Origin: Pseudomonas phage Flu_PA14_4 | Length of the DNA: 45,199 nucleotides | Sequence record: PQ287279.1 | Direction: 5' to 3' (one strand) | Made by a program: the position numbers and the translations under genes | Part shown: positions 16,330-20,891 of the stretch, piece by piece | Numbering within the stretch: position 1 is the stretch's first letter | Layout of the letters: each line of letters opens with the position of its first letter | Notes under the pieces: model-generated | What the model was told of the DNA's origin: nothing | Database searches by the model: none | Seen by the model: the letters and a program-made list of their open reading frames with translations, nothing else

Positions 16330-18681
16330 TTGACCGTCTCTACTACCGATAGTGTTATCGAGTACGAAGGCAACGGGGTTACTACCGCATTCCCTGTTCC
16401 TTTCAAATTTCCAGCCAATGGCGACCTAGTGGTAACTCAGGTCTATAACGATGTTTCGACAACCCTTTCGCTTGGGGCTAACTACTCAGTGGTTGGTGCT
16501 GGAGCACAGGCTGGTGGAGCGGTAATTGTCAATATACCAACTCCGGCAGGGGCCACTCTAAGCATCTCCAGAAGTCTGGCTGCGGTTCAAGAAACCGACC
16601 TGCGCAACCAGGGAAGGTATTTCGCGGAGACGCATGAAAGCGTTTTCGACTATCTCACTATGCTGATTCAGCAGGGATTTTCAGGTCTTTCAAGGGCCTT
16701 GAGGCGCCCAATAGGTAAAGACTACTTTGACGCCGAAAATCGAAGAATCTCTAATGTCTCCGATCCTGTGCTTTCGCAGGATGCAGTAACCAGAAAGTGG
16801 TCCGAGGAATACTTTTCTGATTTGATCAGTGATATTCAGGGTCCGGTAAACAATGCACAGAATGTGCTTTATGTAGATGGTGACGGAATATCAACTACTG
16901 TTCAGAAGGGGATTATAAAACAATTCACTTCTGTCTCTGATGTAAGAGGGAAAGCAGGGGACAAGGATGGAGATCAAGCTGTCCTTCTAGGGTACTATCA
17001 AGACTCGCCTGGAGTTGGGGGCGGGAATCTGTACTGGGACTCTCTCTCTGTAGAGCCAGATAATGGCGGATCGGTCTTTGCTGTTACCGGGGTTCCAAAT
17101 GGTCGCTGGAAGCGCGATATAACGCACGGCGTGTGGGCCGAATGGTTCGGCGCTCGCAATGATGGTTCTGATGCTGCGGGAACTACTGCTGCGGTGTGGG
17201 CTGCAATCATCGCACTCCGGCACGACCCGGAGACGATCGTGCAGTACATCGGCGGTCCCACTGTCACAGCGTATGCATCCGGGCGACTGAACTTCGGCAG
17301 CGGGGTCTTTGCACTCCAGCCTGATAGTTTCGATATTACCCAGGACCTCGGCCTGACCATCGTCGGGCAGGGATTCAGAGGTAAGAACCAGGCGATGAAG
17401 GCGGCTACCACGTTGCTCTGCAAGGGAGTTTCAAGTGGATTTTTCTTCCGCCACTACGGGAATGGCGCCCGTAATTTGACATTCAAAGATATGGATGTCG
17501 TATATGAGAACTCGGATTTCACTGGAGATATAGTTGAGAGCCTGACATCTCCCGGCTTGACGCTTGAGAGGACTAGGCTTGGCTGCTATGGAGGCCTTCT
17601 TGGAACTCGCGTTCAAACCGCGAGAAGCTGTATCCGACCAACTTTCGACGAATTTTTGCGTTGCGAAGACGTTGTGTTTGATGGCGCTCAGAATGGCTTT
17701 TGGTCAGATGGTGCGCGGACAATTCCAGGTCTGTCTTTTGGTGGCTGGGGTACGACCCTTATAAACTGTACGTTCTATGATCTTGCCAATTCCATGATAC
17801 ATCACGCGGCTAATAGAGGTAGAAGTATTGTTAATGTAATTGGGTGTGCGTTCAATCCTATCAATATAAGTCCTGCTAGGTGTTTTGACATTACCAACAT
17901 TGAGGGAATCAATGTGACCGGAAATCAATTTACACCAAGCACGGGAAGCCAGCCAACGCAAGAATGGATTAGGCTTCTAGGTAGCACTGGCGCTATAGAT
18001 GGGAATACGTTTTCAGGCCCATCCTCAAAGCTCGGAACCATTGGAGGCGTAGATCCTTCGTCAATCAGGTTCTCTAACAATAGGGTATCCTGCCAAGGTG
18101 GTCTTGTAGTATCCGGAGGAATTTTTACAGGCTCTGGAAACGAATATTCTATAGCTGATCATGGAGTTGACGTATCGCCAGTGGCTATTACTACTCTTGA
18201 TATTGGTCCTGATATTTTCAAGTCTGGAGTATCTGGGAACTCATATCGCATCTCTGCGGATAGCTCCCTTCTTGGCGGGAGAATTAACTACATATTTGAG
18301 CAGGATAACTCAAATAGTAAGTTTTCAAATGTTTCCTCAAGGGTCTCAATTGATAATGTTGATAGGAGAATATCTACTATAGGCTCTCTCCCATCTACCG
18401 CGTCTCCGTATTTTAGCGGAAGAACCTATAATGTTACCGTTGCGGGTACATTCACATTGCCCACTCCAATTCCGGGAATTAGATTGAGAGTAATGAAAAG
18501 CACAGCGACGGCACTGACAGTATCTACCACATCCGGCTCGAATATTCTTGTCGGTGCCAGTTCGGCAAGAACCTCTGCCGTTGCGACAGCCGCCGAGATT
18601 GGGCCAGCAATTGAGTTTGTTGCTTTTAGCTCTGCATCATGGGTGGCGCAAGTCCTGTCAGGGTCTTGGTCATTCAGCTAG
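16330..18681 (+). CDS. Tail fibre/tailspike with beta-helix-like receptor-binding part
   Basis: A high-GC N-terminal adaptor domain is followed by AT-rich stretches with beta-helix-like repeats (NCTFYDLANS...VNVIGCAFNP...). It is the last structural gene. Confidence 0.65.
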   Translation: MTVSTTDSVIEYEGNGVTTAFPVPFKFPANGDLVVTQVYNDVSTTLSLGANYSVVGAGAQAGGAVIVNIPTPAGATLSISRSLAAVQETDLRNQGRYFAETHESVFDYLTMLIQQGFSGLSRALRRPIGKDYFDAENRRISNVSDPVLSQDAVTRKWSEEYFSDLISDIQGPVNNAQNVLYVDGDGISTTVQKGIIKQFTSVSDVRGKAGDKDGDQAVLLGYYQDSPGVGGGNLYWDSLSVEPDNGGSVFAVTGVPNGRWKRDITHGVWAEWFGARNDGSDAAGTTAAVWAAIIALRHDPETIVQYIGGPTVTAYASGRLNFGSGVFALQPDSFDITQDLGLTIVGQGFRGKNQAMKAATTLLCKGVSSGFFFRHYGNGARNLTFKDMDVVYENSDFTGDIVESLTSPGLTLERTRLGCYGGLLGTRVQTARSCIRPTFDEFLRCEDVVFDGAQNGFWSDGARTIPGLSFGGWGTTLINCTFYDLANSMIHHAANRGRSIVNVIGCAFNPINISPARCFDITNIEGINVTGNQFTPSTGSQPTQEWIRLLGSTGAIDGNTFSGPSSKLGTIGGVDPSSIRFSNNRVSCQGGLVVSGGIFTGSGNEYSIADHGVDVSPVAITTLDIGPDIFKSGVSGNSYRISADSSLLGGRINYIFEQDNSNSKFSNVSSRVSIDNVDRRISTIGSLPSTASPYFSGRTYNVTVAGTFTLPTPIPGIRLRVMKSTATALTVSTTSGSNILVGASSARTSAVATAAEIGPAIEFVAFSSASWVAQVLSGSWSFS

Positions 18682-20610
18682 TCAACCCCCTGTTACTGGC
18701 AGGTCTTTTAGAAATACATCACCAAGTCCGACTGATTTTAAATAGTCGGACCTGCGTGATGCTATGTCTTTCATAACAGAGATCAAGAACGTTGCCGTCA
18801 TGTGGTTCGCGTCAGTAATGAATGGGACTCCGCTCGCATCATACGGACAAGAACCTAAGATAGAGCAGACAAGCTCTTTTACGTCGATGTATGTATATGG
18901 GGCTCTCATTCTCGAAGAGTATTTCCCATATGGTTCGCTGCCATCATAGGTTGCGGCATCTATACAGGATTTTGCTGAATTTTTCGATATGAACATTGTG
19001 GATAGGCATGATTGCTTTTTATCTACATCAAGTTGGAAGTAGTTGCCAAATACGTATAGGTCGGCTCCGGTTTCATTCTTTAGCTTCTTATACAGATCAA
19101 ACCTGTACATGTTGTATCTGTAGGAGAAAGGTCTGTGTGAAACGATGAATATCTTCTCTGTAGAGTCTAGCAGCTTTCTATCGCTAGTGACTTTTGAGAA
19201 TGTTTCGCAGTTCTCTGTATATCGAGATTCTGTCGGGGATGCTTTCAGGGATTTGGAAATATCACTGAACTTGCACCCTAAATAGCTTACGGAAATTACG
19301 CGATAGCGGCTTTTATCTACTTGGCTTGAAATCCCTATGGACCAGTTAGTTAGATAGGAGTCGCCAACTATAAGTACCACTGGTTTATCGCTTTGCGGGT
19401 CAGTATCTTCTATAAAAAGCTTTCTATTAGCGTTCTCTATTAGCTGAGAATTAATGCTGTAGACGCTATCAAGTCTTTCCGGGAATCCTTCCTTTACATA
19501 GCCATACGACGCTACAGATATGAGCGTAACAATAGCAATCGCTGTAGACGCTATAGGTCGCTTACCTAGGGCGCTGGCCCCGTTGCGCACAGGTTTTTCG
19601 ACTAGCCGGTAACTCAAGATAGAAAGCAAAAGCGTGAAGGAAATCGCAATCGCAGAGTGCTCTGCTGATAGCTCTCCAAAGCTGCGGAGTTTGAAGATTG
19701 CCAGTATTGGCTGGTGCCACAAATAAGCGCTATAGCTGATCAGGCCAATCATTACGAATGGCCTAGAACTGAGAATGACTCCAACCAGAGTACGCGGACC
19801 GGTGGCAGCAATGATCAGAGCAGTCCCAATCACAGGCAGCGCGGCATTGATGCCTGGGAATGGTGTCTGCTCGTTATAAGCTAGTATGGCGTATACGATC
19901 ATCGATAGGCCGGATAACGACAGTGCTTGATTAAGCGGCCCTGACGATATCGGCGCCGTTCTGCGTAGCAGGTAGAGCGCGGTTAGTGAGCCGACAAGCA
20001 ATTCCCAGGCGCGTGCTGGCAGCATATAGAATGACATCATTGGATCAGTAGCCAGATAGTGCTCAGCAAACCACATGCTGGCAGCTACCAAGGCCAAGGT
20101 AATGACGGCGAACCATGCGCGCCCTAGTCGCCAGACGGCCATCACCAGCAACGGAAAAACAATGTAGTACTGCTCCTCTACTGCAAGGCTCCATGTGTGA
20201 ATAAGAGGTTTGAGCGTTGTTGCCGTATCCCAATATCCAGACTCATACCAAAACAGGATGTTGGATGAGAACGTTGCAGTGGCCGCGATGCTTGAGAAAT
20301 AACTTTTCAGTTCTTCTGGAGGCAAAAACACCCACGCCAACGGCATTGTTGCAAGTATCACCACGAATAGCGCAGGCATAATCCTCTTGGCGCGTCTTTG
20401 GTAGAACTTGATTATACTTATACCGCCGCGTTCTTGATCCTTAATAAGAATCGTGGTTATCAAAAATCCACTTATTACAAAGAAAACATCAACTCCAACA
20501 AATCCTCCAGAGAATGACTTAAATCCGGCATGAAAAAGAATGACCGACAAAACTGCAATAGCGCGGAGTCCGTCTATCTCTGGTCGATATTTAACAGTTG
20601 GATTACTCAT
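18682..20610 (-). CDS. OafA/YrhL-type O-antigen acyltransferase (acyltransferase-3 membrane domain plus SGNH domain)
   Basis: N-terminal multi-TM domain (RPEIDGLRAIAVLSVILFHAG) and a C-terminal GDS motif (VVLIVGDSYLTNW). Strongly AT-rich and convergent with the tail fibre. Confidence 0.75.
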   Translation of the reverse strand: MSNPTVKYRPEIDGLRAIAVLSVILFHAGFKSFSGGFVGVDVFFVISGFLITTILIKDQERGGISIIKFYQRRAKRIMPALFVVILATMPLAWVFLPPEELKSYFSSIAATATFSSNILFWYESGYWDTATTLKPLIHTWSLAVEEQYYIVFPLLVMAVWRLGRAWFAVITLALVAASMWFAEHYLATDPMMSFYMLPARAWELLVGSLTALYLLRRTAPISSGPLNQALSLSGLSMIVYAILAYNEQTPFPGINAALPVIGTALIIAATGPRTLVGVILSSRPFVMIGLISYSAYLWHQPILAIFKLRSFGELSAEHSAIAISFTLLLSILSYRLVEKPVRNGASALGKRPIASTAIAIVTLISVASYGYVKEGFPERLDSVYSINSQLIENANRKLFIEDTDPQSDKPVVLIVGDSYLTNWSIGISSQVDKSRYRVISVSYLGCKFSDISKSLKASPTESRYTENCETFSKVTSDRKLLDSTEKIFIVSHRPFSYRYNMYRFDLYKKLKNETGADLYVFGNYFQLDVDKKQSCLSTMFISKNSAKSCIDAATYDGSEPYGKYSSRMRAPYTYIDVKELVCSILGSCPYDASGVPFITDANHMTATFLISVMKDIASRRSDYLKSVGLGDVFLKDLPVTGG

Positions 20611-20891
20611 AACATACCTGTCGTTGTGTTCATCTGCCTGTTACAGCGGCGCCGATCATACCCAATTGGAGCGGAACATGCCCATCACTGAGCAGCAGTT
20701 GCTGCCGCAGGATGAGTGGCGAGCGGTAGGGGGATGGCGTAGCGGCTTACGAGGCGGAGCGCTTAGGTGCTGGGGGAATTCTGGGGGAGCTAGTCCCCCA
20801 AACAACCATTCATGGACATGAAGCAAGATTAGTGAATGGTGCATAGATTCTGGTGTTGCCGGTTTGAGGTTGTGCAGAATGGGACCTGAAA

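Follow-up and report, generated by a model that had tools for sequence, protein, structure and literature searches.

The temperate podoviruses BTP1 of Salmonella and Sf6 of Shigella carry a beta-helix tailspike gene, a convergent O-antigen acetyltransferase gene and attP followed by the integrase gene (attP-int), and in both of them acetylation acts against the phage's own tailspike. GtrC of BTP1 is necessary and sufficient for protection against BTP1 and counters the tailspike-dependent shortening of the O-antigen, and Oac of Sf6 blocks the Sf6 endorhamnosidase. In this work we analyzed a similar region of the Pseudomonas phage Flu_PA14_4 (PQ287279.1; its whole stretch of 45,199 nt is called the window), in which the gene of a tail fibre or tailspike meets a convergent acyltransferase gene close to attP. 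The gene order in the window (tailspike, O-antigen modification gene, attP-int) is the order of BTP1. GtrC, a member of the OafB family, is likewise a fusion of an acyltransferase-3 (AT3) and an SGNH domain, with the same motifs and 32% identity to the window protein. BTP1 and Sf6 differ from the window in their host genus, O-antigen and tailspike sequence, and Oac of Sf6 is an AT3-only protein.

Two phages of Pseudomonas aeruginosa have related arrangements. The temperate phage D3 has an AT3-family O-antigen acetylase gene beside a tail protein gene, and its O5-to-O16 conversion and exclusion are documented. However, serotype conversion by D3 involves three genes (iap, O-acetylase and wzy-beta), including a polymerase swap, whereas neither iap nor wzy was found beside the fibre and acyltransferase genes of the window; the tail protein and the integration site of D3 are also different. 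JBD44 shares with the window convergent acetylation genes directly downstream of the tailspike gene (gp39), the host PA14, and a putative upstream promoter region of 60 nt with 98% identity. Its receptor is the O-antigen, and the gp39 genotype controls plaque halos. The products of gp40-41 are reported to acetylate the O-antigen; in lysogen cultures, deletion of these genes reduces free phage by a factor of about 10^4 and leaves the induced yield unaffected. Unlike the window phage, JBD44 is a siphovirus, encodes an MBOAT protein and a separate AlgX-type SGNH protein that are not homologous to the AT3-SGNH fusion, and retains an intact endolysin cassette, of which only nine codons are left in the window.

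The closest described relatives are YA3 (vB_PaeP_YA3) and Ab31 (vB_PaeP_Tr60_Ab31). By megablast, the region belongs with the temperate P. aeruginosa podoviruses of the Ab31/YA3 group, with 97% nucleotide identity to Ab31 at window positions 13000-22352 and 99.7% to YA3 at 16280-23136. The same two genes are present in both phages (ORF19/ORF20 of YA3, ORF17/ORF18 of Ab31), together with the same attP in tRNA-Ser, and the acyltransferase and distal fibre proteins of YA3 are 100% identical to those of the window. The authors of the YA3 paper noted the OafA/YrhL-type domain and the proximity to attP and suggested serotype conversion (PMC7326022). As both genes had already been annotated and interpreted there, the finding is correct but already known. 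The arrangement follows the classical Sf6/P22/BTP1/D3 paradigm and the conceptual addition is small; it consists of a cassette shared across phage morphotypes, a non-homologous enzyme swap behind a shared promoter, an endolysin fossil and a corrected composition profile. The siphovirus-shared cassette, the fossil and the extended hairpin described below are absent from the YA3 and Ab31 papers.

The tailspike gene

The following features were assigned to the fibre gene (window positions):

16330..18681, plus strand: tail fibre or tailspike gene, 783 aa (open reading frame, ORF; PHROG 1640 'tail protein', E = 3.4e-152)
16330..16857, plus strand: N-terminal particle-binding anchor of podovirus type, aa 1-176 (Pfam Phage_T7_tail)
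16858..18678, plus strand: distal module, aa 177-783, beta-helix and C-terminal beta domain (AlphaFold2, Foldseek)

The N-terminus of the protein scored 29.1 bits with Pfam Phage_T7_tail (cut-off 25.2) and matched residues 1-191 (domain 1) of the Dpo31/Dpo36 tailspike in PDB (E = 4.8e-22). This separate particle-binding domain is swapped for another one in the siphovirus homologues, which show no similarity to the fibre before aa 177; from aa 177 onward the fibre is homologous to siphovirus tail proteins of 719-720 aa. The identity to the protein of the siphovirus PAShipCat1 is about 50% at aa 179-255 and about 99% thereafter. At the nucleotide level, similarity begins at window position 17096 for PAShipCat1 (98.9%) and at 17033 for JBD44 (72%), placing a recent recombination breakpoint at 17033-17096 (aa 235-256). 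Gp39 of JBD44 is 67-71% identical to the fibre over aa 177-783, reaching 98% at aa 301-350 and ranging from 52 to 76% along the rest. On these alignments the fibre is best described as a chimera of a podovirus-type anchor, ending at about aa 176, and a distal module shared with siphoviruses, which agrees with the mosaic fibre proposed in an earlier, sequence-only reading of this DNA (the original prediction). In YA3, mass spectrometry of virions detected gp19, which is nearly identical to the fibre (PMC7326022).

The beta-helix-like character of the distal part was also borne out. The AlphaFold2 model of aa 186-783, built from an alignment of 24 homologues, is nearly all beta and forms a right-handed parallel beta-helix (predicted local distance difference test, pLDDT, 92.8; predicted template-modelling score, pTM, 0.87). 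The best Foldseek matches in PDB were tailspike-type parallel beta-helices, the top ones being depolymerases of O-antigen and capsule, namely WceF, CBA120 TSP2, Depo32, K2-2 TSP, Acinetobacter tailspikes and Sf6 TSP, with probability 1.0 and E-values down to 6e-9. Homologues of the fibre carry PF27114 (Phage_tail_beta), PF12708 (Pectate_lyase_3) or PF13229 (Beta_helix). The distal module is taken as the receptor-binding part and a putative depolymerase.

The composition of the region is not uniform. The GC content is 0.482 at positions 16001-21000 and 0.583 in the rest of the window, where no 2-kb window falls below 0.542; the AT-rich block predicted originally is thus real. The acyltransferase gene has a GC content of 0.458, and its SGNH half 0.430, in agreement with the strongly AT-rich gene expected, while the integrase gene is at 0.584. 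For the fibre and acyltransferase genes, this low GC speaks for an earlier origin, separate from that of their surroundings. The prediction of a high-GC N-terminal adaptor giving way to AT-rich sequence at the fibre junction did not hold: the GC content is 0.491 at aa 1-176, 0.477 at aa 177-255, 0.598 at aa 256-362 and 0.464 at aa 363-783. The sole GC-rich segment (aa 256-362) is internal, is conserved across tailspike lineages and contains recombination breakpoints. On the whole, the interpretation given in the original prediction is supported, and its observations are confirmed in part.

It should be mentioned that the lytic phage vB_PaeP_FBPa8 (L007; Paundecimvirus, Zobellviridae) contains at 4537-5241 an ORF of 234 aa that is 84.6% identical to fibre aa 538-783, so the distal end of the spike circulates in lytic phages too. 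This ORF is possibly part of a split gene.

The AT3-SGNH acyltransferase

Three features belong to the second gene:

18682..20610, minus strand: fused AT3-SGNH acyltransferase, 642 aa (Pfam; PHROG 6705)
about 19609-20583, minus strand: AT3 domain (Pfam)
about 18790-19395, minus strand: SGNH domain (Pfam)

The gene is convergent to the fibre gene, and the two stop codons touch: the fibre stop TAG (18679-81) abuts the acyltransferase stop (TCA at 18682-84, read as TGA from the minus strand), and not a single base separates them. The protein matched Acyl_transf_3 (PF01757) at aa 10-334 with 110.3 bits (cut-off 31) and the SGNH domain fused to AT3 (PF19040) at aa 406-607 with 52.3 bits (cut-off 27). 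It also matched PHROG 6705 'O-antigen acetylase' from end to end (E = 1.5e-219) and has about ten hydrophobic segments N-terminal of aa 371. Pearson et al. listed motifs conserved or essential in OafA/OafB, namely R/K-X10-H in the first transmembrane helix (TMH1), GG-F/Y-xGV-D, FFxISG and RxxR (PMC7448272). All of them are present here (R16-X10-H27; GGFVGVD at 35-41; FFVISG at 43-48; R73-A-K-R76), as are the SGNH catalytic triad motifs G416-D417-S418 (block I) and D600-A-N-H603 (block V). All these motifs, those of the SGNH triad included, are invariant in the alignment with PAJU2 gp24, BTP1 GtrC and the D3 acetylase (Orf28), which are 46-47%, 32% and 31-34% identical to the window protein. 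By domains and motifs, the 642-aa protein thus corresponds to an AT3-SGNH fusion of OafA/OafB type with all catalytic motifs, as had been predicted.

A shortened form of the gene was revealed in a close relative, the phage vB_Pae_HB2107-3I (L005). In its region 6082-7494, only the SGNH half (277 aa) and an integrase fragment of 170 aa are left after a deletion that took away the AT3 domain together with attP and the N-terminus of the integrase; an ISL3 transposase gene lies nearby. Judging from this sequence, HB2107-3I is probably no longer able to lysogenise.

Linkage and origin of the cassette

A search of public assemblies for the exact 642-aa protein gave 320 index blocks. The search returned eight distinct contexts, and in each of them the gene directly adjoins that of a PF27114 tail protein, with no intergenic bases; the neighbour has 719 aa in siphovirus prophages with a tape-measure gene and 783 aa in podovirus prophages. 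PAShipCat1 shares window positions 17096-20684 at 98.9% nucleotide identity. The distal fibre and the acyltransferase thus form a 3.6-kb unit with touching stop codons that crosses phage morphotypes. Other layouts of the same kind were found as well. In JBD44 and LC3I3 a related spike is followed by the AlgX-type SGNH protein and then by the MBOAT protein, and in PAJU2 a beta-helix tail protein is followed by a 46%-identical AT3-SGNH protein; BTP1 and D3 have a matching neighbourhood, with a tail protein gene beside the acetylase gene. PAJU2 gp23 was considered as a fibre homologue and rejected, its sequence being unrelated (E = 0.003 over 39 aa) although it is also a beta-helix protein. Between spikes of the window type and of the JBD44 type the identity is about 98% for the neck (aa 256-362) and about 60-70% along the beta-helix.

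Between the acyltransferase gene and attP two features overlap:

20645..20705, minus strand: conserved region upstream of the acyltransferase gene with the promoter-like sequence TGGGCA-18-TATGAT (20684-20655)
20678..20704, plus strand: fossil of a JBD44-type endolysin gene, its first nine codons (MPITEQQLL)

The upstream region of about 60 nt, almost identical to the sequence preceding the MBOAT gene of JBD44, is common to the AT3-SGNH gene (the window and PAShipCat1) and to the unrelated MBOAT gene (JBD44 and LC3I3). The fossil marks a deleted anti-repressor/lysis cassette. Cassettes lost at this site are intact at the equivalent position in two prophages: a siphovirus prophage (L016) retains the anti-repressor and lysis cassette between the acyltransferase gene and att, and a podovirus prophage (L014) retains a GH19 lysis cassette there.

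The siphovirus prophage L016 has the same tRNA-Ser att region. Since the distal fibre, the acyltransferase gene and att occur together in such siphovirus prophages, they probably arrived in one piece. Sequence comparison suggests that the distal spike, the acetylase and att-int, which make up a siphovirus prophage's right end, probably entered the podovirus lineage in one step and that the lysis genes were lost later, which fits the chimeric origin proposed for Ab31 (PMC3974807). It follows that the block, which the original prediction saw as wedged between the structural module and attP-int, does have that position, but the description as a wedge does not suit genes that travel with att.

Proposed function of the cassette

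From the experiments on the relatives (JBD44, BTP1 and Sf6) we infer O-antigen acetylation and self-exclusion: by analogy, the cassette is likely to be both receptor-binding and receptor-modifying, with acetylation of the O-antigen providing self-exclusion and protection of the progeny. The tailspike would be a trimeric-type beta-helix; its distal module is most likely to bind the O-specific antigen and probably also to cleave it, as in relatives infecting PA14. The original prediction had suggested a lipopolysaccharide (LPS) receptor; the O-antigen receptor of JBD44, together with the identity of the two spikes, favours this. The acyltransferase would consist of an inner-membrane AT3 domain and a periplasmic SGNH domain. 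Its gene probably has a promoter of its own beside attP and so would be expressed from the prophage. As in OafA/OafB, AT3 would move an acetyl group across the membrane and SGNH would put it on an O-antigen sugar. A literature search on the chemistry of O10/O19 acetylation returned nothing usable. The acetylated O-antigen would be a poor substrate for the phage's own tailspike, and lysogens would therefore exclude superinfection and not reabsorb their own progeny; they may also change serotype. The spike and acyltransferase genes travel jointly between podovirus and siphovirus backbones.

The enzyme might instead modify another envelope polymer (peptidoglycan, common polysaccharide antigen, LPS core, alginate or Psl) and lie beside the spike gene by coincidence. 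The first Ab31 record indeed annotates it as 'putative peptidoglycan O-acetyltransferase', AT3-SGNH proteins act on many glycans (PMC9558356), and the SGNH domain is too divergent for assignment of the acceptor. We consider this improbable, as the nearest families that bear a name are those of O-antigen acetylases from phages (PHROG 6705), the full-length identity to BTP1 GtrC and the D3 acetylase is 31-32%, and the linkage to the tailspike gene is strict (8/8 contexts). Besides, the corresponding slot of JBD44 holds genes reported to acetylate the O-antigen, and the O-acetylation of Gram-negative peptidoglycan is ascribed to MBOAT-SGNH pairs (PatA/PatB), not to AT3 fusions (PMC12148441).

Alternatively, the O-antigen is acetylated but the benefit is that of the host (evasion of serum, antibodies or other phages), the phage's own tailspike is not blocked, and the linkage reflects a shared insertion hotspot at the end of the late operon. 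Accessory genes often gather beside att sites and behind tail genes, and the conversion genes of D3 and of Salmonella alter serotype and antibody recognition too. The tailspike allele and the type of acetylase co-vary, however, each of the window-, JBD44- and PAJU2-type spikes having its own enzyme; the pair crosses morphotypes as one 3.6-kb unit whose stop codons abut; and the JBD44 and BTP1 equivalents act against the adsorption or cleavage of their own phage. This makes a benefit to the host alone very unlikely, more so than a different polymer.

Several points weigh against O-antigen acetylation with self-exclusion as proposed here. Serotype conversion is a proposal in the YA3 paper (PMC7326022), and Ab31-resistant host variants carried a 234-kb deletion, and LPS mutations as such were not reported in that paper (PMC3974807). 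A PDB sequence search with the acyltransferase gave no matches at E < 0.1, and NCBIfam gave only SucT, far below its threshold (137 bits, cut-off 1275); homology therefore gives no indication of the acceptor sugar. The candidate promoter of the acyltransferase gene matches the consensus at 9 of 12 positions, and promoter-like matches are not in excess in the region (5, compared with 6.8 +/- 2.0 in shuffles). The hairpin at the 3' end of the gene, to which we now turn, is not followed by a U-tract and gives no evidence of covariation.

The hairpin in the 3' end of the acyltransferase gene

Two structures lie just beyond the fibre stop codon:

18717..18761, either strand: extended imperfect hairpin holding an 8-bp stem (18726-18751), found by folding
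18689..18703, plus strand: weak terminator-like stem followed by TCTTTTAG, 8 nt past the fibre stop (terminator scan)

The predicted hairpin GTCCGACT-N10-AGTCGGAC was found exactly at 18726-18751. Its 8-bp stem as such is not beyond chance, and the actual structure is larger. The extended form has 15 pairs on the plus strand (-23.7 kcal/mol, z = -7.2) and 18 on the minus strand (-28.0 kcal/mol, z = -8.4), ranks in the top 1.8% (plus) and 0.6% (minus) of all 54-nt windows, and is located 36-80 nt beyond the fibre stop. It occupies acyltransferase codons about 617-631, within the last 26 and after the catalytic DxxH motif.

It is plausible that the late (fibre) transcript has its 3' end marked or stabilised by the hairpin. 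Strong hairpins of canonical form occupy the same place in other cassettes: in JBD44 and LC3I3 the counterpart comes right after the tailspike stop, inside the overlapping convergent ORF gp40, and is accompanied by a T-run; the counterpart in PAJU2 is a GC-rich stem within the 33-bp spacer right after the tailspike stop. These counterparts, the full stem of 15-18 pairs with z of -7 to -8, and the fact that no other window of comparable stability has a GC content near 0.43 speak against a chance palindrome in coding sequence with no function of its own. We nevertheless regard such a palindrome as a real possibility, though somewhat the weaker one. Perfect 8-bp stems with loops of 3-30 nt are about as common in the window as in shuffles (34 and 27.9 +/- 6.6), and among 30,098 windows of 54 nt there are 168 whose folding equals or surpasses that of the minus-strand form. 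The hairpin is followed by CTGCGTGA on the plus strand and by TTGGTGAT on the minus strand; with no U-tract it fails the definition of an intrinsic (Rho-independent) terminator, and it was not listed by the terminator consensus scan. The stem is identical in Ab31, YA3, PAShipCat1 and HB2107-3I, close relatives that leave no room for covariation.

The stem at 18689-18703 was rejected as a terminator, its folding being no better than that of shuffles (z = -0.37).

The att region and the integrase gene

Downstream of the cassette, the following features were found:

about 20892..20955, plus strand: attP core, identical with the 3'-terminal 63 nt (+1) of the tRNA-Ser(CGA) gene of the host (transferred coordinates)
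20771..20790 (left) and 21000-21019 (right), plus strand: direct repeat TGGGGGAATTyTGGGGGAGC (repeat family D1)
20960..20993, plus strand: strong stem-loop of 15 pairs followed by a T-run (-24.5 kcal/mol, z = -4.7)
21064..22038, plus strand: tyrosine integrase (Pfam Phage_integrase, 82.8 bits)

The 64-bp att core was mapped experimentally in YA3 (PMC7326022) and Ab31 (PMC3974807), and its coordinates were carried over to the window through nucleotide alignment; the integrase start codon was taken from the Ab31/YA3 annotation. Window positions 11682-20960 are 99.95-99.98% identical to a prophage in two P. aeruginosa assemblies (L017 and L018). This prophage ends at the att core, beside a host glycosyltransferase gene, and the homology breaks off at about 20955-20960, in agreement with the position of the core. 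The acyltransferase gene thus lies at the prophage end, 281 nt from the attP core, next to attP-int as originally described.

The direct repeats flanking the core are candidate arm-binding sites of the integrase. The stem-loop at 20960-20993 adjoins the 3' end of the tRNA and is a terminator that the phage supplies for the reconstituted tRNA gene. A full-length tRNA-Ser(CGA) called by ARAGORN at 20864-20950 was rejected as a gene and considered an artefact of the att fragment. Rfam gave no tRNA match at threshold there (only tRNA-Sec, 23.1 bits with a threshold of 47, E = 0.36), the match to the host tRNA is confined to the 3' 63 nt, and the papers on the relatives report no tRNA genes (PMC7326022, PMC3974807).

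Other features of the window

A further structure precedes the fibre gene:

16286..16305, plus strand: stem-loop AACCCCGA/TCGGGGTT followed by a T-rich run (-18.4 kcal/mol, z = -4.9)

It is situated immediately 5' of the ribosome-binding site (GGAG) and the TTG start codon of the fibre gene and looks like a terminator within the late operon. The near-identity with YA3 starts at 16280, exactly at this hairpin. Upstream of this point the window follows Ab31, not YA3, which has there an additional reverse ORF annotated as 'outer membrane protein assembly factor'. Position 16280 is one more mosaic joint. A weak Rfam match to RsmY at 16158-16307 (22.8 bits, threshold 57; E = 0.017) extends from the end of the gene for the 859-aa virion protein over this hairpin; because the hairpin drives the match, it is probably due to chance.

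Far from the cassette, at 32623-33354, the window contains a tandem repeat of 27 copies of a 27-nt unit with 91% match. It lies inside a minus-strand ORF of 439 aa (32413-33735) with an N-terminal DUF7666 domain and encodes a nonapeptide repeat of approximately SNTGDHSAA. The repeat region has a GC content of about 0.68 and is strongly AT-skewed, and nowhere else in the window are local folds as stable.

Significance of the cassette

The slot behind the PA14-type tailspike can be pictured as a swappable 'receptor-editing' position, in which one conserved promoter would serve alternating non-homologous acetylation systems (AT3-SGNH or MBOAT with AlgX-type SGNH) that define exclusion groups, and hairpins embedded in the coding sequence would shield the acetylase gene expressed from the prophage against convergent late transcription. 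As a whole this picture is speculative and rather doubtful. Distinct exclusion groups would result if the positions acetylated by the two systems differed and if each spike tolerated the mark of the other system; these groups would then represent an arms race of temperate phages over one O-antigen.

Prophage genes that edit the O-antigen decide which phages adsorb to a given P. aeruginosa strain and can shift its serotype. They are therefore of relevance for the choice of therapeutic phages, for serotyping and for O-antigen vaccines, and the exact protein described here is widespread in sequenced isolates.

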